This document shows positions 10,219 through 51,212 of a stretch of 64,000 bases of DNA, piece by piece. Position numbers and translations under genes: made by a program. Position 1 is the stretch's first letter, and each line of letters starts with the position of its first letter. The notes beneath the pieces are model-generated. The model worked only from the letters and a program-made list of their open reading frames with translations, made no database searches and was not told the DNA's origin. This DNA is from a virus, in IMG/VR virus record IMGVR_UViG_3300046514_000858, positions 1 to 64,000 of that record; one strand, written 5' to 3'.

Positions 10219-10511
10219 TGGGCCGCCGTAATCAGTACCTGACCGAGGGCATGGCGCAGGTCCTGCGCATCATCGACGAGAGCGACGAGAAAGAGCTCGC
10301 GCAGTCCATCCCCGGCGGCTGGTGGGTGGGCGACCAAGAGGTCGACGGGCGCGTCTGCATGGCGCTGCTACGATTCTGCCTCCTCCATCAGGAGCATGAC
10401 AGCAGCGAGACGTTCATCCGCTACACGATCAACGAGGACGGCCGAGGTGTCATGAACGATCCGACCTACGTGCCAAAGATCGTGACGGCGATGAAGGAGA
10501 AGAAGCTGTGA
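10218..10511 (+). CDS. hypothetical protein
   Basis: TGATG coupling; codon usage typical of the genome. Confidence 0.55.
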   Translation: MGRRNQYLTEGMAQVLRIIDESDEKELAQSIPGGWWVGDQEVDGRVCMALLRFCLLHQEHDSSETFIRYTINEDGRGVMNDPTYVPKIVTAMKEKKL

Positions 10512-10737
10512 ACGAACACGCGCTCATGATCGTCATCACGGTGCTGAGCCTCTGCCTTTTCCTGTGGGCCTGCTTCCCGACGCGTAAGGGCACCTACGTC
10601 GCGGGCAACTGCTTCTTCTGCCACCACTTCCGCATCATCGGGACCTGCACCAGCGTCTACACCGGCCACAAGCGCCATTGTCTGGAGTGCTGCGAGGGCA
10701 GCACTGACTGGACGCCCGAGCGCAACCGCTGACCGAG

Positions 10738-10750
10738 GTCCAAGTGGGTG
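10738..10750 (+). promoter_or_regulatory. Class III (late) promoter GTCCAAG-N4-YR before the ART cassette
   Basis: GTCCAAG-tggg-TG; same motif precedes most morphogenesis genes. Confidence 0.75.
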
Positions 10751-11505
10751 TGCAGAACGACCGTCCGCCGAGTGATTTCGACCATCCCTTCATCAAGGGT
10801 GGCTCAGGCTCCGGCAACTACGGACATCAGGGTCGCAGCGGTGAGCGAGGCGGCAGCGCGCCCGGCCAGCCCCGATCCGTGGCGGGCAAGGAGTTCAAGG
10901 GCTTCCCTCCGGCCACGAGCCCCCGCAAGGGCAAGGGCGAAAAGGTCGACGGCAAGAAGTTCGGCGCAAAACTTACAGAAGCAGAATCCAAGGCGCTGTC
11001 CGATTACGTGAATCAGGGCAGCAGCAACATCAACGATCATCTTCGCAACGGCAAGGCGTTGTTTCCCGAGTACAACGACCACATTGCCGCGGTCAATTCC
11101 GCCATCGCCAAGGGCGACAACTCCGAGCGTCTGCTCTATCGCGGCGCGCGGATCCAGTCCATGGAATCTCCCGCCTTCGACTACAGCACCGAGCGCCGGG
11201 CGTTCGTGCAGAAGTTCGAGGACCAGATCGGGAAGACCGTCACCATGAAGGGCTTCCAGAGCACGACGACTAGCCCCGAGCTGGCGGCCGAATTCGCTGG
11301 CGTGAACGACAATCCGATCTTCGAGATCCGCGCGAAGGGCGGCGCGCCCATCGGTGATCTGTTCGGCGCGAAGGAGAACGAGGTCGTGCTGCCTCACGGC
11401 GCGAAGTACAAAGTGCTCGACGTTGTGCACAACGTGAAGTTCAACAATCCCAAGTACGGTGATCGCCGGAATCGGTTCACGGTGATTCGACTGGAGATGC
11501 AGTGA
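10750..11505 (+). CDS. Arg-type ADP-ribosyltransferase (VIP2/Alt-like) with Gly-rich virion-targeting-like leader
   Basis: LYRG, FQSTT and ENEVVLP (R-S-ExE); N-terminus FDHPFIK|GGSGSGNYGHQGRSGERGGSAPG; GTG at 10750 preferred because it lies at the motif's YR position. Confidence 0.85.
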   Translation: MQNDRPPSDFDHPFIKGGSGSGNYGHQGRSGERGGSAPGQPRSVAGKEFKGFPPATSPRKGKGEKVDGKKFGAKLTEAESKALSDYVNQGSSNINDHLRNGKALFPEYNDHIAAVNSAIAKGDNSERLLYRGARIQSMESPAFDYSTERRAFVQKFEDQIGKTVTMKGFQSTTTSPELAAEFAGVNDNPIFEIRAKGGAPIGDLFGAKENEVVLPHGAKYKVLDVVHNVKFNNPKYGDRRNRFTVIRLEMQ

Positions 11506-11588
11506 TGCACGATCCGAAGGAACGGCCCGAGTCCGAGCTCGAAGACAAGTTCCAGCAGCCGGTCGACGGGATCGAGTTCGATAATTAG
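11505..11588 (+). CDS. 27-aa acidic peptide, candidate ART immunity protein
   Basis: TGATG-coupled to the ART; MHDPKERPESELEDKFQQPVDGIEFDN*. Confidence 0.5.
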   Translation: MHDPKERPESELEDKFQQPVDGIEFDN

Positions 11589-11869
11589 ACCGCCGGGCAA
11601 TCCAAGAAATGGATCTGGGATGCCTGCGCAGTCCACGATCCGCTGCCCTTGAAGTCCCAGTAGAAGCGCAGCGACATCATTCCTTTCGCGATTTTCTGTC
11701 CGCACTCCTTACAGGTCGCGCGCCCGGTCGCGGTTACCAGTTCGAGGCAGCCGTACTCGATATACTGTCCGCCCCGGTCGAGATTGTCGAGCCGCTCTCC
11801 TGACACGGCATGTTGCTGGCCCACTTCGCGGATCCCCTGAGCCTGCCACTCCTTCAGCATATTCGCCAT
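11585..11869 (-). CDS. PARP-type zinc-finger protein
   Basis: ATGRATCKECGQKIAKG...IHFLDC (C-x2-C...H-x3-C); GGAGG RBS. Confidence 0.65.
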   Translation of the reverse strand: MANMLKEWQAQGIREVGQQHAVSGERLDNLDRGGQYIEYGCLELVTATGRATCKECGQKIAKGMMSLRFYWDFKGSGSWTAQASQIHFLDCPAV

Positions 11870-11877
11870 ATTTCCTC

Positions 11878-12420
11878 CTACCCTGCAGCGCTCACGATCA
11901 GGTCCACTGCCGCGGCAATCACCTCTGTCGCCAGCGACCGATCCACCCCGCCGATCATATCCACCAGCGCCAGAGATTCTATCCCGTACATCTCCCGGAA
12001 TTTCGGATCCGGGTTCGCGAGCATTCCCCGCAGATTGTCGAGCCGATCCAGCATCTTCAGGATCTTCACGGCCGGGCACTGCTGCCCAAGCCGCGCCGTT
12101 TCCATCTTCTTCCGATCCTTCCGCGGCACCACGCCCTTGAGGGCCTTCGTCGAGTTCGTCAGCCCCATCACCAAGACAAGCACATCCATCCCGCAGGCGG
12201 CCTCGATTTCCGCGGGGGTCAATGCCGTGTCCTCCAGTGAATCGTGGAGGAAGGCAGCGGCCACGAGCTCCGGCGTCGCGTCCGCCCGCGCGGCCATCAT
12301 CGCAGCCACCCGCGAGGGATGGACGAAATAGGGGGTTCCTTCAAACTTCCGCATCTGGCCTTCGTGGGCCTTCTGGCCCAGCTCCCGGGCCCGGACCACG
12401 AGGGGATCGCTCATCAGCAC
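11878..12420 (-). CDS. small alarmone hydrolase (Mesh1/SpoT-type HD domain)
   Basis: AHEGQ.RK..G.PY..HP, AA.LHDSLEDT, LV..LT, K..DRLDNLR. Confidence 0.85.
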   Translation of the reverse strand: MLMSDPLVVRARELGQKAHEGQMRKFEGTPYFVHPSRVAAMMAARADATPELVAAAFLHDSLEDTALTPAEIEAACGMDVLVLVMGLTNSTKALKGVVPRKDRKKMETARLGQQCPAVKILKMLDRLDNLRGMLANPDPKFREMYGIESLALVDMIGGVDRSLATEVIAAAVDLIVSAAG

Positions 12421-35961: not shown

Positions 35962-36249
35962 GGAGGACAACATGGGACAGCAGAAGAAAGACGCGCCCGT
36001 TCAGAAAACCCCCAAGAAGGGCAAGAGTGTGCACACGGTGCACTCCTCGGTGAAGTACGCCATCCGGCACGGCTACACGCCGGGATCGAGCCCGCGTCGC
36101 ACGGGCAAGCGCTGGAATTCCGGCCGTCGCGAGCGCATGCTCAACGCCCCGACGAAATCGGCGGGCCTGCCGAAGGTGCACTGACCGCCGCTTTTTCTGT
36201 TACGCCGCGCCTCCATGGTCGTCTCTATTACGTGATGAATGGAGGAAGC

Positions 36250-36720
36250 ATGGACGCCAAGGCAGCCGGTCCGATCAAGCAGGTCTGGGAAGGCGCGGTC
36301 GGGACGGCCAAGCGCTGTCGCGCGGTTCTAAAAGCCAAGTTCCCCGGCACCAAGTTCTCGGTCCGCTCCAAGACGTACTCCGGCGGATCCTCGGTTTACA
36401 TCGACTGGACCGATGGTCCCCTGACGGAAGCTGTCGACAAGCTCGTGAAACCCTTCGAGGGCGCGTCCTTCGACGGCATGGTCGACCTGATGAGCTACGT
36501 CGACGTGGTCGTGGTGGATGAGTCCGGCGAGCTGGTTCAGATCCACGGCGCGAACTACATCCTGACCCAGCGTTCCCGCTCGGCTGAGCGCGAGAAGCTG
36601 ATCGAGGCGGAGCTCCGGCAGTACTGGTGCGAGAAGGAAGCAGAGGAAGCGATCAAGTTCCACGACTGCCGCCTGTACGCGGAGTCGGAAGCTCGGATGA
36701 TGAAGGAGGGCAAGCTGTGA
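36250..36720 (+). CDS. LPD29-like (large polyvalent protein domain) protein
   Basis: LKAKFPGTKFSVRSKTYSGGSS..I.WTDGP...FDGM.D. Confidence 0.75.
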   Translation: MDAKAAGPIKQVWEGAVGTAKRCRAVLKAKFPGTKFSVRSKTYSGGSSVYIDWTDGPLTEAVDKLVKPFEGASFDGMVDLMSYVDVVVVDESGELVQIHGANYILTQRSRSAEREKLIEAELRQYWCEKEAEEAIKFHDCRLYAESEARMMKEGKL

Positions 36721-37068: not shown

Positions 37069-37818
37069 ATGTTGAAAGCGTCTCGTCCCAGTTCTCCCTT
37101 CGACGACCCCTTCCGTAAGGGCAACGCGAACTCCGGCAACCATGGCCATTCCGGTCGCCCGGGCCAAGTCGGAGGCAGCGCCCCCGGCGGCGGGCAGAAC
37201 GCGGCGGTCAATCCCGTGATCCGGGCCCAGACCGAGCACGTCATGGCGCAGGCCCGGGCGATGGACAACAAGATCACGCCTCTGATCGCCATGACCGTCG
37301 ACACGAGCGGTGGCCAGATGATCGGTCTCGAACATCGCATCAAGACCTCGGCCGACCGCATCTCCCAGAAGATCGCCGAGAAGATGGCCACCGAGAATCT
37401 CACGCCTGAGCAGGCGCGTAACAACATCTACGACTCCCTCCGCTTCACGGCATCGTTCAGTCCGGACCAGTACACCGCCGGAGTGGAGAAGCTGTTGTCC
37501 AACCTCAAGGCGCAGGGTATCGAAGCAGCCCCGGGCAAGGACAAGAATTATTGGCCCCCGCCGCCCGGTGTCTACCACGGCCTCAACTACGTGATGACCG
37601 ACAAGAGCGGCTTCAAGTTCGAGCTCCAGTTCCACACGCCCGAGAGCTTTGCCATCAAGCAGCAGAACCACACCGTCTACGAAGCATTCCGGAACGCGGG
37701 AGGCAGCAAGGAGCAGCGCCTCCAGCTCTGGAACGAGATGAACCAGCGCTGGGCTGGCGTGACCGTGCCGCCGGGCGTCAAGCGGCTCGGCCGGTCGGTG
37801 AATCAGGAACAGGCATGA
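37069..37818 (+). CDS. RelA/SpoT-family toxic nucleotide pyrophosphokinase (Apk2/Tas1-like) with Gly-rich leader
   Basis: GLEHRIKT...KI, DSLRFT, KNYW, YHGLN, FELQFHTPES, H.VYE..R; N-terminus FDDPFRK|GNANSGNHGHSGRPGQVGGSAPG; GTCCAAG at 37055. Confidence 0.85.
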   Translation: MLKASRPSSPFDDPFRKGNANSGNHGHSGRPGQVGGSAPGGGQNAAVNPVIRAQTEHVMAQARAMDNKITPLIAMTVDTSGGQMIGLEHRIKTSADRISQKIAEKMATENLTPEQARNNIYDSLRFTASFSPDQYTAGVEKLLSNLKAQGIEAAPGKDKNYWPPPPGVYHGLNYVMTDKSGFKFELQFHTPESFAIKQQNHTVYEAFRNAGGSKEQRLQLWNEMNQRWAGVTVPPGVKRLGRSVNQEQA

Positions 37819-37828
37819 GGAGGATGGT

Positions 37829-38059
37829 ATGACGAAGATCCGCTACTTCGAGTTGCAGCCCGCCACGGAACCCAAGCCGACCGGGATCCTGCGCCTCACG
37901 ATCACGGACACCCAGCTCACGCTGGAGCACTACGATCCCAAGTCGGCCACATGGATCGATGACCCCAAGGCCCTCGACTTCCTCAACGGCGACGACGCCG
38001 ACGCCGAGGAGATCCCGTCGGGCGAGGCCCTCAAGTTGATCTTGCAGCTCACCGTCTGA
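37829..38059 (+). CDS. cognate immunity protein (IapK-like)
   Basis: 76 aa, acidic; RYF...LRL...E.Y...W...G....EEI...EA..LI; own GAGGAGG RBS directly after the toxin. Confidence 0.65.
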   Translation: MTKIRYFELQPATEPKPTGILRLTITDTQLTLEHYDPKSATWIDDPKALDFLNGDDADAEEIPSGEALKLILQLTV

Positions 38060-42450: not shown

Positions 42451-43053
42451 ATGAAACAGTGGGATCTCCACCGGACCGAGCTACTTCAAGATCGCGAGTG
42501 GTCGAAGCTGAAGCGCTTCCTCGACGACGAGTCGGATCTCGCCGAGTTGAATGGCAACCGCACTGCCATCCAGAACCGCGTGATCTGTTACGTAGCGGTC
42601 TGGGCCGGGCTCCGGCGCGCCGAGATCGCGAGCCTCGACCTCGACGACTTGTACCTGACGAACGACTCTCCCTTCCTCGTCGTGAAGGACGGCAAGGGCG
42701 GCAAGCGCCGGGAGGTCATGATCTCCCCGATCCTCCGGGCCATCCTTAAGAAGTTCATTCGCGGCATGGAACCGGGCCCCGTCTTCCGGCCCCAGCGCGG
42801 CGAGCGGTACACGGGCAACGGCCTCTGGCGCGTGTGGGCGGTCGCCTGCGCGGGCGCGGGGATCCTGCCTCGGTCGATCCACAAGGCCCGTCACTTCTAC
42901 GGTCAGAAGCAGTACGAGGCGACCAACGATCTCCGCTTCGTCCAGAAGCAACTCGGCCACTCCCGGATCGTGACCACTCAGGTCTACGTCGAGATTTCCA
43001 ATACGAAGGCGGTGGAGAATCTGGCGGGCCTCGACAAGGTGCTGCGGGCTTAG
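42451..43053 (+). CDS. tyrosine recombinase (catalytic domain only)
   Basis: GLRRAEI, GKGGK.R, H..RH, LGHS...TQVY. Confidence 0.9.
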   Translation: MKQWDLHRTELLQDREWSKLKRFLDDESDLAELNGNRTAIQNRVICYVAVWAGLRRAEIASLDLDDLYLTNDSPFLVVKDGKGGKRREVMISPILRAILKKFIRGMEPGPVFRPQRGERYTGNGLWRVWAVACAGAGILPRSIHKARHFYGQKQYEATNDLRFVQKQLGHSRIVTTQVYVEISNTKAVENLAGLDKVLRA

Positions 43054-44914: not shown

Positions 44915-46710
44915 TGAAGATCACCCCGCAGATCCTCGCCAACGACGACCGCATGACGGCCGACGAGGTGGACAAGATCACCGCGGCCTACGCCGGGAAG
45001 ACCCCCGCCCAGATCGTGGCCAAGGATGAGAAGATCCTCCTCCACTACCTCAAGAATCCGCCCCAGCGCGAGATCGAGCTCTACACCTTCCTGACCGCGC
45101 TGACGCATGAGCCGATGCCGTGGCAGTCGATCTGTGAAGACCACTGCACGCCTTGGGATTTCATCTGGTACAGCTACCGGGTCGACCTGCCGCAGTTCCG
45201 GGAGAAGACGTCCCGCCATCTCATCTACGTCGGCCCCCGCGGGGGCTACAAGACCCTGTCCGTGGCGAAGCTGATCGCCGCCGAGCTCCTGCTCAAGCGC
45301 GGCTGTTGGACCGTCGGGATGGGTGCCATCGAAGCGCACGCCAAGCGCACGTACCAGTACGTTCAGCGCTACCTGTCCCACCCAGTGCTGCTGAGCCTCA
45401 AGGCCGCCGAGCTGATGACGATGGCCGAGACCAAGATGTGGAACGGCTCGGTCTACAATCAGGTCTGCGCGACGTGGGCGGGCGTGAACTCCCAGCACCC
45501 GCACAAGATGCGCACCGAGGAGAACGACCTCATCTCCGACCCCTTCATTCTAGAAGAGGCGAAGATGATGCCGAGCTCGCACGGCAAGCTGCGGGCGCAC
45601 ATGTCCTACGTCTCCTCGCGCAAGTTCGAGGACGGGATCATGGACCAGCTCGTCGCCAACGCCGATGCCAAGGGCTACGACTACATGATCTCGTGCTACA
45701 AGGACTCGGCCGAGCAGTGCACCGAGGCTCGGCACGGTGAACGCGCCGTTGCGCCGCTGGAGGTCGAGGATCTGGAAGACCCCACCAAGACGGTCATTCT
45801 CCCGCCCGACAAGATTTTCAAAAACTGTGTAACCTGCCCGATCCTGCCGTCGTGTCAGGGCGACCTCGCGCGCGCGCACGGGGCCGTCGCCATCGACGAC
45901 GTCATCTCCGACTGGCGCGTCCTCGACCGCGACGTCTGGATGTGGCAGAAGGAATGCAAGCGCACCCGGTCCTCCGCGACGTTCTTCCAGTTCTGGAACG
46001 AGCATGTGCAGGAGGGCGATTTCAACTTCCGGCCGGAGTGGGGCCCCGTCGATCTCTCCTTCGACTTCACCGGAGGCGGCGAGGATCCGACCGTCATGGG
46101 CGTCTGGCAGACCGACCCCGTGAACGACAACGATTTCATGATCGGCGAGAAGGTCTGGGACGGCGCGAAGCTGGCCGACTTCGTCTTCGCCGACGCCATC
46201 GAATATCTGCAGAAGCTGGGCGTGCAGTCCATCCGCAACATGATGGGCGACTCGGCCGCCCAGACGTGGATCAACGAGCTCAACAGCAAGATCAACCCGG
46301 CGACCGGCAAGGAGTTCTTCCACATCAAGCCGGTCAAGAAGATCGAGCGGGTCGAGGGCTGGAAGCTGATGCGCCAGCGGGTCCGGGACAATTCCGGCTG
46401 GCACCACATCTTCGCGAACAAGAAGGAGTGCCCGCTCTTCTGTGCTGAGGTCCGGCGGGCGAAGAAGCACAAGACCATCAAGGACGACATCCCCAAGAGC
46501 TGCTCCGACCACTCCCTCGACCAGTGCCGGTACCGGCTGGTGGAGCTACGGTACAGCGGTCTCCGGCAGCCCAACATCCGATTCGTGGGGGAGGGGCACA
46601 CCTACCGAAGTGACCCCGCAGCCATCGCCGACCAGCGGTCCAAGGATTCAGCGAGCGGTGCAGGTCTGACCCGCATGCTCCACCTTGACCCTGATCTGGA
46701 CGACGAGTAA
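44914..46710 (+). CDS. terL: terminase large subunit
   Basis: GPRGGYKT Walker A, EEND Walker B-like, acidic nuclease residues (SFDF, GDSA, DHSLD..RY); precedes the portal gene. Confidence 0.85.
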   Translation: MKITPQILANDDRMTADEVDKITAAYAGKTPAQIVAKDEKILLHYLKNPPQREIELYTFLTALTHEPMPWQSICEDHCTPWDFIWYSYRVDLPQFREKTSRHLIYVGPRGGYKTLSVAKLIAAELLLKRGCWTVGMGAIEAHAKRTYQYVQRYLSHPVLLSLKAAELMTMAETKMWNGSVYNQVCATWAGVNSQHPHKMRTEENDLISDPFILEEAKMMPSSHGKLRAHMSYVSSRKFEDGIMDQLVANADAKGYDYMISCYKDSAEQCTEARHGERAVAPLEVEDLEDPTKTVILPPDKIFKNCVTCPILPSCQGDLARAHGAVAIDDVISDWRVLDRDVWMWQKECKRTRSSATFFQFWNEHVQEGDFNFRPEWGPVDLSFDFTGGGEDPTVMGVWQTDPVNDNDFMIGEKVWDGAKLADFVFADAIEYLQKLGVQSIRNMMGDSAAQTWINELNSKINPATGKEFFHIKPVKKIERVEGWKLMRQRVRDNSGWHHIFANKKECPLFCAEVRRAKKHKTIKDDIPKSCSDHSLDQCRYRLVELRYSGLRQPNIRFVGEGHTYRSDPAAIADQRSKDSASGAGLTRMLHLDPDLDDE

Positions 46711-49154
46711 TGCGCGCCATCGACTTCATCACCAACAGCGCCCGCCAGTACCTCGGAGCTCCGGAATCGATCCGTAAGGCCGCCCCACTCCCGCCGCCCG
46801 CCCCCGTGCGCGACACCCGCGAAGTCGAGCTGGAGAAGGCCCGGGAAGCACTGCGCTCGACGCAGGCGCAGATGGAGCGTCTGATCAAGGTCCAGCAGGG
46901 CCGCATCACCGACCCCAACGAGATTGAGCGGCACGAGCCGATGGAGGCTCCGCTCATCTCCGAGCGGTTCAGCTACGTCGACCTCCGCAACTTCCTCAAG
47001 CTCTACGGCAACCACGTCTGGACGTATCGCTGCTCCAGCGTGATCGCGGCGTCCTGCGCCTCGGTGAAGTTCGTCTGGAAAGAGAACGGCGACCCGGTCA
47101 AGCCCAACAAGCTGTCCGGATTCTACATCAAGCCGAACTCGTACATGACGTGGCACGACCTGATCGAGGTCGCGTTCATCCACATGGAGCTGGCGGGCAA
47201 CGCCTTCTGGGAAGTTCAGCGCGACTCCAAGGGTAAGATCGTCGCCATCTATCCCCTCCGCCCCGACCGCGTCCGCATCATCCCGGACGCCAAGAAGCGC
47301 ATCAAGCGGTACGAATACTGGGTCCCGGGCGCGGCCGACTACATCAAGTACGAGCCGCAGGAGATCCTGCATCTGAAGTACGCCGACTCCATGTCGGAAT
47401 ACTATGGCATCCCTCCCTGCGCCGCCGCGCAGAACGACATCATCCAAGACCTGTACATGACGGCGTGGAACAAGAAGTTCTTCATCGAAGGAGCCACGCC
47501 CGGCGGCGTCCTGAAGACCCCGAACACGCTGACCGAGATCGCCTACAACCGCCTCATGAAGGTGTTCGCGCGGAAGCACCGCGGGAACCCGGCGGAGATC
47601 GCGATCCTCGAAGAGGGTCTGGACTTCGTGCCCGTCGGATCCAAGCACACCGACATGCAGTACCTACAGGGCAAGGAACAGCAGCGCGACATCGTCATCG
47701 CCGCGTACGGCGTGCCCCCGGTGCTGGTGGGCGTCGTCGGCCGCTCGACGGGCGCGGTCAACGACGAGAAGAAGATTTTCTGGCAGCACAACATCATCCC
47801 GAAGATTCAGCGCTTCGAGAGTTTCCTGAACGACTTCCTCCTCCTGACCGGATTCCAGATCGACTTCATCACGAAGACGCTGGCGACGATCATTGAGGAC
47901 GAGAAGATCAAGGCCGACATCGCCCAGTCGAACGTCACCCACGGCATTTGGACCATCAACGAGGCGCGTCTCATTGAGTGGGACATGCCGCCGGTCGAAT
48001 GGGGTGACTCGTGGTGGGCTCCGGTCGGCCTCTACGACGTCAAGAACCCGACCAAGACCCATCCCACCGCCATCGCGGCCAAGTACGCCGCCCAGCAGGC
48101 GGCGGCAGCTCCGAGCGTGGGCAAGGATCCCATCGGCCGGGCGCAGCCCGGGGTCGGTGAGACCGCCGCCGCGGGGAGTCCGACGCAGGTCGCGAGTCTG
48201 CAGAAGCCTGTGGGGCGGCCCAAGACCAAGAGCGAGGACGACCACATCTGGATCGACAAGCGCGAGCTGGCCGAGCCGGACTGGACCAACCGCCAGCAAG
48301 TCGCGGACTACACAGAGTACCTCGTTTGGAAGCAGTCGGCCGGGCCGGACGAGCGCGAGCTGTACAAGCGCGTCCGCGGGCTCTTCGCCGATCAGGGCCA
48401 GCGGATCATCGCCTCCCTGAATAATCACTGGCCCTTCCGCAAGGCGGACGGAGAGAACGACGACCTGATCGTCGACGCTGTCTTCGACGCCCAGCAGGAG
48501 GACAACTCCACGCGCGTTGTGCTCATGGCGGGTGCGGAGAAGCTCCTCAAGAAGTACGGCTCGGCTCTGCTGAGCTCGCTCGGCATCAACAAGGACTTCC
48601 GCCTCACCAACGACCGCGTCCAGAAGTTCCTCGCGGACTACGCGGCCGAGAAGGTTCGGATCATCAACGAGACGACCCGCAACCTGCTGCGTGAGGCTCT
48701 GTCCGAGGCGTACAAGAACGAGACGCCGTACAAGGAGCTGATCGGGAAAATCGCCGACATCTTCGACGGCGACGTCTCCGTCAGCCGGGCCGAGCGGATC
48801 GCCCGCACGGAGATGGTCACGCTCACGAACACCGCGCGCTACGAGGCCGCGGTCGACAGCGGCGTCGTCCAGTACAAGCGTTGGATCAGCGAGCAGATCC
48901 CGACCACCCGCCAGCGTCCCGGCGGCGAGAACCACGTCATCCTGCACGGCGTTGTGAAGGCACTCGACGAGCCCTTCGAGGCGCGCAGCCGGACGGGTGT
49001 GGACATGATGAGCGCCCCCGGCGATCTGAACGCGTCCGGCGAGAACGTATGCGGCTGCTTGTGCATCGCCAGCTACTACTCGGGGACCTCGGAATTCGCC
49101 GACCTCCTCCTGCCGGACGGCGTTCCGGCGGCGGACTCGGGCGAAGCGCCCTAA
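46710..49154 (+). CDS. HK97-type portal fused to a MuF (SPP1 gp7-like) minor head domain
   Basis: GNAFW, PLRPDRV, YYGIPP, AYGVPP, TINEAR portal motifs; C-terminal RAERIARTE...K.W...H..LHG...PGD...C.C. Confidence 0.9.
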   Translation: MRAIDFITNSARQYLGAPESIRKAAPLPPPAPVRDTREVELEKAREALRSTQAQMERLIKVQQGRITDPNEIERHEPMEAPLISERFSYVDLRNFLKLYGNHVWTYRCSSVIAASCASVKFVWKENGDPVKPNKLSGFYIKPNSYMTWHDLIEVAFIHMELAGNAFWEVQRDSKGKIVAIYPLRPDRVRIIPDAKKRIKRYEYWVPGAADYIKYEPQEILHLKYADSMSEYYGIPPCAAAQNDIIQDLYMTAWNKKFFIEGATPGGVLKTPNTLTEIAYNRLMKVFARKHRGNPAEIAILEEGLDFVPVGSKHTDMQYLQGKEQQRDIVIAAYGVPPVLVGVVGRSTGAVNDEKKIFWQHNIIPKIQRFESFLNDFLLLTGFQIDFITKTLATIIEDEKIKADIAQSNVTHGIWTINEARLIEWDMPPVEWGDSWWAPVGLYDVKNPTKTHPTAIAAKYAAQQAAAAPSVGKDPIGRAQPGVGETAAAGSPTQVASLQKPVGRPKTKSEDDHIWIDKRELAEPDWTNRQQVADYTEYLVWKQSAGPDERELYKRVRGLFADQGQRIIASLNNHWPFRKADGENDDLIVDAVFDAQQEDNSTRVVLMAGAEKLLKKYGSALLSSLGINKDFRLTNDRVQKFLADYAAEKVRIINETTRNLLREALSEAYKNETPYKELIGKIADIFDGDVSVSRAERIARTEMVTLTNTARYEAAVDSGVVQYKRWISEQIPTTRQRPGGENHVILHGVVKALDEPFEARSRTGVDMMSAPGDLNASGENVCGCLCIASYYSGTSEFADLLLPDGVPAADSGEAP

Positions 49155-50459: not shown

Positions 50460-51212
50460 ATGCGCAACATCAAGCTGTCGAGCGTTTCCTTCACCATCTC
50501 CAAGGCCGCGAAGGCCCCCAAGGCACCCCTGAGCGCCCCGTCCGGCGCGCCCACGGATGTCGTCGATCCGAACGATCCCGGCGACATGGATCAGTGCTGC
50601 GACGACCACGCCCCCACCTCCCCCGTCATGAAGGGCATGTCCCACGTCGAAGCGTACGGCGTGCGCAAGCTCTGCAAGGCCGCGAAGGGCGAGCATTACC
50701 CCTTCAGCCAGTGCCTGATCGACCGCCAGAAGGACGGCTACTCGCAGGAGTCCGCCTCCAAAATCTGCGGTGCCATCAAGGCCGGGACCGTCGTGCACAA
50801 GAACGAGTTCATCGTCACCCCGAACGAGGATGGCTCGGTCAACTGGAAGCTCAACGTGGAGTTCACCAAGGTCGACGCCGAAGAGCGGATCGTCAAGGGC
50901 GTCGTCTACGAGCCCGACGTCGTCGATTCGCAGGGCGACAGCGCCTCCGCCGACGAGATCCGCAAGGCGTGTCACGGCTTCATGGCCGACTCGAAGACGC
51001 TCGGCGTGATGCACAAGGAGACCGCCGGACCCCGCGCGTCCATCGTCGAGAACTACATCACCGACAACGACCAACGAATCGGCAACCAGTCCGTCAAAAA
51101 GGGAACGTGGATGATGGCCGCGAAGGTCCACGACGACGAGCTGTGGAACGCGATCAAGAAGGGCGACATCACCGGTTTCTCCATGGGCGGGCGCGCGGAA
51201 AACGCGGACTGA
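50460..51212 (+). CDS. XkdF-like prohead serine protease with N-terminal extension
   Basis: ERIVKGVVYEPD..DSQGD...EI.KA...MH...VE.Y...KGTW...W..IK.G..TGFSMGG. Confidence 0.88.
   Translation: MRNIKLSSVSFTISKAAKAPKAPLSAPSGAPTDVVDPNDPGDMDQCCDDHAPTSPVMKGMSHVEAYGVRKLCKAAKGEHYPFSQCLIDRQKDGYSQESASKICGAIKAGTVVHKNEFIVTPNEDGSVNWKLNVEFTKVDAEERIVKGVVYEPDVVDSQGDSASADEIRKACHGFMADSKTLGVMHKETAGPRASIVENYITDNDQRIGNQSVKKGTWMMAAKVHDDELWNAIKKGDITGFSMGGRAENAD

Follow-up and report, generated by a model that had tools for sequence, protein, structure and literature searches.

A phage ADP-ribosyltransferase gene with a polyvalent-protein leader and a probable 27-codon companion gene

Phage T4 encodes the ADP-ribosyltransferases (ARTs) Alt, ModA and ModB, and Alt, which modifies host RNA polymerase, EF-Tu and MazF in an arginine-specific manner, serves as a functional model for the enzyme described below (PMC8120803). 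Multi-domain phage polypeptides have been described as polyvalent proteins by Iyer et al. 2017 (PMC5512222), and ARTs of the Alt/VIP2 type are described in fusion with MuF or portal proteins (PMC9503650); both papers predict that such fusions are packaged in the phage head and injected. The subject of this report is an ART gene, together with a 27-codon open reading frame (ORF) that begins at its stop codon and is termed the micro ORF here. Both lie in IMG/VR virus record IMGVR_UViG_3300046514_000858, in the stretch of 64,000 nucleotides (nt) referred to as the window, which covers the initial 64 kb of one contig of 93,745 bp (GC 62%). The source is an uncultured soil phage. Judged from its sequence, the ART is most likely a solo module of a head-delivered arsenal, and the micro ORF is probably a real, ART-associated small gene.

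The window ART and its glycine-rich N-terminal leader are homologous to modules of the polyvalent proteins and of the MuF- or portal-fused ARTs, from which the gene differs in standing alone, far from the head genes. With T4 Alt, ModA and ModB it shares a phage origin and the R-S-ExE active site, and relatives of it are found in fusion with head proteins. The likeness to Alt is confined to the catalytic core: the window ART has no Alt N-terminal region, does not lie in a late or baseplate context and, unlike Alt, is coupled to a small ORF. We know of no glycine-rich leader of this kind in Alt.

The polymorphic MuF toxins (Jamet et al. 2017, PMC5576092) and Bxa with Bsi and BAH (PMC11699363) resemble the window pair in that a phage-borne ART-type toxin is immediately followed by a small ORF, and the Bxa system is a described precedent for small ART immunity partners. 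The window ART itself has no Mu F domain, which sits on the portal protein instead, and no ADP-ribosylhydrolase gene was found near it. At 27 amino acids (aa), its candidate partner would also be far smaller than the immunity proteins of MuF toxins, described as "less than 150 aa" (PMC5576092). In the Tre1-Tri1 pair of the type VI secretion system of Serratia proteamaculans, Tre1 is an R-S-E ART related to the window ART at profile level, and the immunity conferred by Tri1 is due in part to its short N-terminal extension, which blocks the active site of Tre1 (PMC8120803). Tri1 is a full DraG-like hydrolase plus this extension, whereas the window would have the peptide alone; the likeness is one of proposed mechanism, and no sequence similarity is claimed. 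Finally, Vip2, iota Ia, CDTa, C2-I and the C3 exoenzymes are the best profile and fold matches of the window ART, which has ExE as do the arginine-modifying members. Identity is ~20-25%, and the window ART is a single domain without the N-terminal adaptor, with a bacterial rather than a eukaryotic target expected.

The family membership of the ART is well defined. An earlier note on this DNA placed the gene here with a start at 10750; the gene is present, but its real start is at 10744, so that 10750 lies 6 nt inside it. The intact R/STT/ExE pattern that the note described was found with all parts in order: R133 (in YRG), S173-T-T and E211-N-E213. In an alignment of 13 sequences, R133, S173, E211 and E213 are invariant. 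The protein matches PF03496 (ADPrib_exo_Tox) over residues 71-231 with E 4e-17 and 62.6 bits against a cut-off of 23.4. Among solved structures, a profile of the ART alignment matches Vip2 (7e-21) and the Tre1 entries 6drh/6dre (~1.5e-9), as well as BEC, CDTa, iota Ia, C2-I, Lmo0066, Vis, Certhrax, C3, ExoS/T and HopU1. The AF2 model of the ART (pLDDT 82.5, pTM 0.77) finds C2-I, Vip2 and iota Ia by Foldseek with E ~5e-11 and a query-normalised TM of 0.52-0.56. In PHROG, there is a match to the MuF+ART family phrog_595 (E 1.2e-8) and a weak, partial one to the Alt-like phrog_802 (E 2.2e-5). Four other strains differ from the window in this gene by 13 synonymous and 7 non-synonymous changes. Because the evidence from family, triad, fold and strain variants agrees, the gene is a live one from a well-known family of enzymes, and its product is an ordinary member of the Alt/VIP2/C2/iota clade, an active-looking mono-ADP-ribosyltransferase. 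The [EXE] motif is described as typical of arginine-modifying ARTs (PMC8120803), and from this motif arginine would be the modified residue. RNA polymerase or translation, in line with the reprogramming of host transcription or translation that the earlier note had suggested, are putative targets by analogy only.

The leader is what would link the window ART to the phage head. ART residues 1-39 consist of RPPSDFDHPF followed by IKGGSGSGNYGHQGRSGERGGS and are predicted to be disordered (pLDDT <50). The consensus is RPxSxFDxPF-KGGSGSGxxGHxGRxGxxGGS, in which K18, G19-20, G22-S23-G24, G27-H28, G30-R31, G33 and G36-G37-S38 are invariant in alignment A3. An exhaustive phmmer search gave 976 matches, and in most of the best 150 of these the matching stretch is the leader, which is repeated 3-10 times inside proteins of 1,000-7,300 aa. 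In P0007, such junctions lie between nine PF03496 domains; P0006 has the layout leader-ART-leader-ART, its second ART being 65% identical to the window ART; and in P0009 an XkdF protease domain accompanies six leaders. By comparison with the 2-15 effector domains of a polyvalent protein, the window ART protein has one catalytic domain only.

A scan of IMG/VR for the leader gave 554 pattern matches and 234 confirmed relatives, of which 80 were kept, with 70 loci stored. These loci hold 102 distinct leader-bearing ORFs, 67 of which were scanned for domains. A head domain is present in the same polypeptide as the leader in 11 of the 67 (portal in 6, Mu F in 4 and XkdF in 1), while other leader-bearing ORFs encode Zeta toxin, Ntox50, ART-PolyVal, NUDIX, topoisomerase I, restriction-endonuclease-like and kinase-like domains. 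P0044 is a fusion of portal and ART, and a portal-ART fusion is also found in locus L008, directly followed by a Zeta-toxin leader module. In L010, the ART gene is directly upstream of the portal gene. Because the leader also divides effector domains in giant polyvalent proteins, some of them fused to portal, MuF or XkdF, the window ART is most likely a solo head-delivered effector. The leader as a junction motif and the R-S-E ARTs within polyvalent proteins add to what has been published. The searched text of PMC5512222 does not describe the leader motif, nor do the papers listed by a literature search, judged by title and abstract, which is not proof that it is undescribed; the leader or these small ORFs may already be included in the FTP files of PMC5512222 or in the domain tables given with PMC5576092.

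Two further features of these arrays were observed. R-S-E (PF03496) ART domains occur 2-9 times per giant multi-domain phage protein (P0007, P0011, P0014, P0022), and Zeta-toxin kinase domains are found as leader-bearing modules of effector arrays (L008:5618-6640, L024:71-2224). Moreover, a second junction motif, F-x-F-D-P-x-x-H-P-[HRK]-G-x-x-G-[RHK]-[WF], follows ART domains in P0007, P0008, P0024, P0084 and P0130. Its H..G..GR core is similar to that of the GHxGRPG leader, and both motifs possibly represent forms of a single signal for processing or docking.

The earlier note took the ART to be injected. Delivery is plausible through a leader linked to portal, MuF and XkdF and through the P0044 fusion, but the gene is not among the late genes. 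Its position in a run with the genes of the single-stranded DNA-binding protein (SSB), the RecA-like protein, the SbcCD-like protein and a nuclease, ~34 kb upstream of the portal gene, counts against packaging. An alternative is that the ART stays unpackaged and serves host takeover inside the cell at an early or middle stage, in the manner of T4 ModA/ModB, and that its leader is only a flexible linker inherited from polyvalent ancestors. Besides the placement of the gene in a plus-strand DNA-metabolism run distant from the head genes, the predicted disorder of the leader would fit a linker, as would the fact that the leader motif was not found in the head proteins of the same phage. However, the strong conservation of the leader exceeds what a linker needs, and the leader co-occurs with portal, MuF or XkdF in single polypeptides. 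We regard an unpackaged ART as on the unlikely side but a serious contender; it concerns the ART alone, is compatible with any reading of the micro ORF, and was given its probability apart from theirs.

The micro ORF has the coupling and composition that the earlier note reported. The ART stop codon TGA at 11503-11505 overlaps the ATG at 11505, the translation is exactly MHDPKERPESELEDKFQQPVDGIEFDN, and the product is acidic, with 9 acidic and 3 basic residues. Such stop/start overlaps are found at 49 of the 114 confident gene ends, and GGAG or GAGG, the former of which precedes the micro ORF, is found before 64 of 114 genes compared to 274 of 2,647 (10%) of all ATGs. The GC content of the micro ORF by codon position is 0.68/0.21/0.79. 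Its codon log-odds of 0.76 bit/codon correspond to the 55th percentile of 773 in-frame windows from real genes; only 0.5% of the genome's 424 small ORFs score as high, and the frame of the micro ORF is the best of the six over its stretch.

The micro ORF has also been retained among strains. Contigs of run X3 span it without any difference, while those of runs X4 and X5 join 11589 to 11888, which keeps the micro ORF to one base past its stop and removes the zinc-finger gene downstream. The sole variant listed within it, 11552 C>T (X5, X6), is synonymous. The strain variation in the micro ORF is too small for a selection test.

Comparable peptides follow the ARTs of other phages. In IMG/VR, there are 12 distinct contexts with an ORF that ends in an ART, and in 10 of the 12 the next ORF starts within -8 to +4 nt of the ART stop. 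Some of these next ORFs run into a new leader and module, and others are small and acidic (Table 1). The residues before the leader number 24-33 in those that run into a leader, compared to 27 in the micro ORF. A motif, [KR][FY]-x4-6-[DEG][LIV][IVT], opens 7 of 11 ORFs after ART-terminated leader ORFs and none of 81 after other leader ORFs; when only modules with an N-terminal leader are counted, it is present in 3 of 4 that follow ARTs and in none of 47 others. The zero counts mean that this element goes with the preceding ART rather than with module starts in general, and this specificity (0/81) speaks for a role tied to ARTs and not for a module N-terminus of the generic kind. Smith-Waterman comparison of the micro peptide with 127 distinct post-ART peptides gave P 0.002 (1000 shuffled queries) and P 0.005 (400 random-window sets). 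The top scores were those of the in-frame tail of P0044, AEKFNQPLDAVEF (49), the L004 family, ERYVQPADGVVF (36), and DDFVQPIEIQ of P0032 (34). At best, the micro peptide is a divergent member of these post-ART peptides.

The best explanation of these observations joins a solo head module to a real micro gene with an ART-binding, immunity-like role. The ART would be a free-standing copy of a module that is otherwise found in polyvalent proteins, or in translationally coupled arrays, anchored to portal, MuF or the XkdF protease. Its leader would steer it into the prohead, where the XkdF protease would trim the leader. The enzyme would then be ejected with the DNA and would ADP-ribosylate arginines of host proteins early in infection. 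The micro ORF would be translated by termination-reinitiation at the TGATG, and its product would be the detached equivalent of the 24-33-residue peptide that opens the ORFs right after ART genes in other phages. This peptide may bind the ART and keep it quiet, or escort it, in the producing cell before packaging, by analogy with the occluding extension of Tri1 and with the small immunity proteins of MuF toxins and Bxa. As a whole, this explanation is held tentatively, at somewhat short of an even chance.

Several observations weigh against it. The GGAG before the micro ORF is not independent evidence, since it is located in conserved Leu-Glu codons of the ART. Because the motif was defined after the ART set had been seen, the 7 of 11 is partly by construction, and only the zero counts are unbiased. 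By inspection, the micro peptide itself fails the strict post-ART motif, as KFQQPVDGIE is wrong at the last position. The blastp-short and phmmer comparisons are only marginal (E 0.097 and 2.8), with P0044 and L004-family sequences at the top there too. A profile of 12 sequences (the first 26 residues of the next ORFs) misses the micro ORF in the six frames of the genome, its best match lying inside RecA (E 0.06), and a profile of the 8 motif-bearing peptides ranks the micro ORF 9th (E 9.4). It ranks first (E 0.062) only with a profile that includes P0044, P0017 and P0039, which were picked by eye. A search with the P0044 tail (residues 800-866) returned only P0044. Many relatives have tandem ART domains and neither a separate small gene nor room for partners. 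In addition, we know of no antitoxin for T4 Alt, ModA or ModB.

Binding of the peptide by the ART was addressed by complex prediction, as the earlier note had proposed. The pair scored 0.47 compared to 0.01 for the best control, which lends weak support to binding. The runs gave 0.38, 0.47 and 0.49, with a partner pLDDT of at least 50 and agreement of at least 64% of contacts between runs. These values are to be read against a calibration in which 116 of the 157 solved complexes attain the mark, as do 2 of the 215 mismatched pairs, in which the passes at or below 0.60 comprise only 18 of the 157 solved complexes and both of the passing mismatches, and which does not extend to chains of fewer than 30 residues, such as this peptide of 27. 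Docking in cis of the homologous tail of P0044 was considered as well and found no support: AF2 leaves residues 828-866 below 50 pLDDT, in a poor model (mean 56.8), and since the tail is predicted to be disordered there is no sign of such docking, a further point against a binding role. Actual neutralisation of the ART by the peptide is doubtful. A broader proposal is that head-delivered ARTs come with a dedicated acidic "plug" of 25-35 residues, encoded exactly at the ART stop, that would occlude the ART until packaging or ejection. The plug would take the form of a micro-gene (the window, L052), of a small protein (L002, L007) or of a cleavable N-terminus of the next module (L004, L021, L054). 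This proposal is quite unlikely.

An alternative for the micro ORF is that it is an evolutionary stub, a functionless remnant of the pre-leader of a lost downstream module or of an ART tail, and that the ART has no partner. The module would have been lost when the convergent unit of HD and zinc-finger genes came to abut the ART, and the stub may still be translated. Equivalent peptides run straight into the next leader module in 4 of the 12 loci, and into a degenerate leader in a fifth (L009), and the pre-leader lengths of 24-33 residues match the 27 of the micro peptide. Genes are gained and lost often in this region, as indicated by a 298-bp indel that ends one base past the micro ORF stop, and polyvalent relatives hold several ARTs without partners. 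Moreover, the coding signature alone cannot exclude a relic because codon bias decays slowly. On the other hand, a similar ORF of 26 aa, coupled at both ends, is present in L052, which is an independent lineage, and related peptides follow ARTs specifically. The frame is also intact in three other strains with a synonymous change as the sole difference, which is too little variation to weigh. A stub is judged unlikely, though far from negligible.

The weakest alternative, that there is no gene and that the 80-nt spacer between convergent genes is open in one frame by chance, would agree with the fact that a 27-codon frame is not rare in 62% GC DNA, with the lack of a family match to the micro ORF in Pfam and PHROG scans, with two negative results in three profile tests and with the degenerate DNA pattern for its motif, KF[QNK]QP[VL]D[GA][IV]EF, which found nothing in metagenome contigs or viral contigs, but it is improbable in view of the gene-typical codon usage in the best of six frames, the Shine-Dalgarno-like site with the TGATG overlap, the similarity to post-ART peptides (P ~0.002-0.005) and the absence of a terminator or stable RNA that would explain a conserved spacer.

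Three other candidates found no support. An RNA element or terminator in the 80-nt gap is disfavoured by folding no better than that of shuffles (z -0.67 and +0.62), by the lack of a terminator-like site and by the lack of any Rfam family near its gathering score. A -1 frameshift that fuses the ART to the peptide would delete the last ART strand, because the peptide frame is open only from 11463, and no slippery heptamer was seen by inspection. Nor is there support for an origin of the micro ORF by copying of the N-terminal RPxSPFD pre-leader of the ART: the profile of this element from 7 relatives finds the ART (E 1.5e-4) and the gene at 37069 (E 0.02) and misses the micro ORF.

Table 1. Features of the window, with positions in the window, and ORFs that follow ARTs in other loci
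Feature	Position or locus	Strand	Remarks
ART gene	10744..11505	+	GTG start, 253 aa; leader residues 1-39, catalytic domain ~41-253
ART leader	10744..10860	+	RPPSDFDHPF then KGGSGSGNYGHQGRSGERGGS; junction motif of phage polyvalent proteins
GGAG, Shine-Dalgarno-like tetramer	11493..11496	+	8 nt before ATG 11505; inside Leu-Glu codons of the ART C-terminus
27-codon acidic micro ORF	11505..11588	+	TGATG overlap with ART stop; own TAG stop overlaps the stop of the convergent gene
94-aa gene, PARP-type zinc-finger-like (CxxC...HxxxC)	11585..11869	-	PF00645 E 9e-4, below cut-off; convergent on micro ORF
HD_4 (RelA/SpoT-type HD) phosphohydrolase	11878..12420	-	E 5e-14; phrog_990; first gene of a short minus-strand unit
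Second leader-bearing effector gene	37069..37818	+	249 aa; same two-part leader as ART
76-aa acidic ORF	37829..38059	+	After second leader gene; begins MTKIRYFELQPA
Integrase-family gene	42451..43053		Fits a temperate lifestyle
Portal fused to Mu F domain	46710..49154	+	Pfam/PHROG; presumed docking/assembly context for head-delivered effectors
XkdF-type (S78_2) prohead protease	50460..51212	+	Pfam/PHROG; candidate leader-processing enzyme
Next ORF after ART continues into new leader and module	L004, L008, L021, L054
Next ORF after ART continues into degenerate leader	L009
Small acidic leaderless ORF after ART	L052, L007, L002		26 aa, coupled at both ends (L052); 60 aa (L007); 89 aa (L002)

The window contains a second cassette with the same leader. 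For the C-terminal domain of its effector, the sole matches are to C-terminal portions of families that PHROG labels "head morphogenesis/minor head protein" (phrog_7625, E 2e-20), a position at which MuF proteins carry toxins. The earlier note had likened the place of the micro ORF to that of the immunity gene of this other cassette. The cassette and its acidic 76-aa ORF do exist, but the ORF lies 10 nt downstream of the effector gene and does not overlap it. The nearest Atlas clusters of the 76-aa ORF contain small phage and actinobacterial proteins, with scores <0.9 that make them sub-threshold leads only. Just upstream of the second leader gene, at 36232-36720, LPD29 (large polyvalent-protein-associated domain 29, E 4e-21) is encoded on its own. 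Since this domain adjoins the leader gene, the phage seems to encode the pieces of a disassembled polyvalent protein in individual genes.

Downstream of the micro ORF, the zinc-finger gene falls within a strain-variable indel of 298 bp (11590-11887) and is absent in two runs from different studies. In these two runs, the 11589/11888 joint carries 7 other letters and puts the stop of the HD gene beside that of the micro ORF. The HD_4 unit has a promoter-like (sigma-70-like) site at 12475-12446, in a genome otherwise read from the plus strand. The HD_4 product is possibly an alarmone hydrolase, and its place beside a toxin-type gene recalls the alarmone hydrolases that adjoin MuF Apk2 toxins. 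Directly upstream of the ART, at 10508-10732, lies a gene whose 74-aa product has a single hydrophobic helix and a Cys/His-rich tail and gave no family match.

Gene content indicates a tailed phage (Pfam and PHROG scans of 88 plausible genes). The same scans identified DNA-metabolism genes for a gp32-like SSB, a RecA-like protein, an SbcCD-like nuclease and a PDDEXK nuclease, as well as head and tail genes for an HK97-type capsid, a tail tube, a tape measure and a Dit-like protein. Nearly all genes of the window are on the plus strand. Parts of the stretch are present in 13 metagenome runs from soil, rhizosphere and freshwater, with no RNA dataset among them. The closest relatives, the proteins P0002 and P0006, stand at 62-65% identity. 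There was no match in GenBank phages to the ART, to the region or to the terminase-like protein (tblastn, megablast), and no relatives of the neighbouring genes (HD, a 271-aa ORF and terminase-like) were matched in viral contigs. The single ART protein gave no match in viral contigs, where ART alignment A1 returned one distant locus, L001, as its sole match. ART alignment A2 had no match in metagenome contigs and genome contigs, nor did P0006 in genome contigs.

The leader, GSGxxGHxGRPGxxGGS, is a module-boundary tag in hundreds of phage polyvalent proteins and ties solo genes to the head-delivered arsenal. Injected phage proteins could be sought with it as a simple sequence tag, and it is also a candidate site, open to testing, at which the prohead protease may cut. 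A working peptide partner of the ART, if true, would mean that gene callers systematically miss micro-immunity genes beside phage toxins, and it would provide a minimal inhibitor scaffold for R-S-E ADP-ribosyltransferases. If ART plugs exist, the micro peptide would be the smallest known ART immunity element, and there would be a general rule for silencing the toxins of polyvalent arrays in the producing cell. A peptide-sized, ART-specific partner would, if true, be a new variant of toxin-immunity logic.

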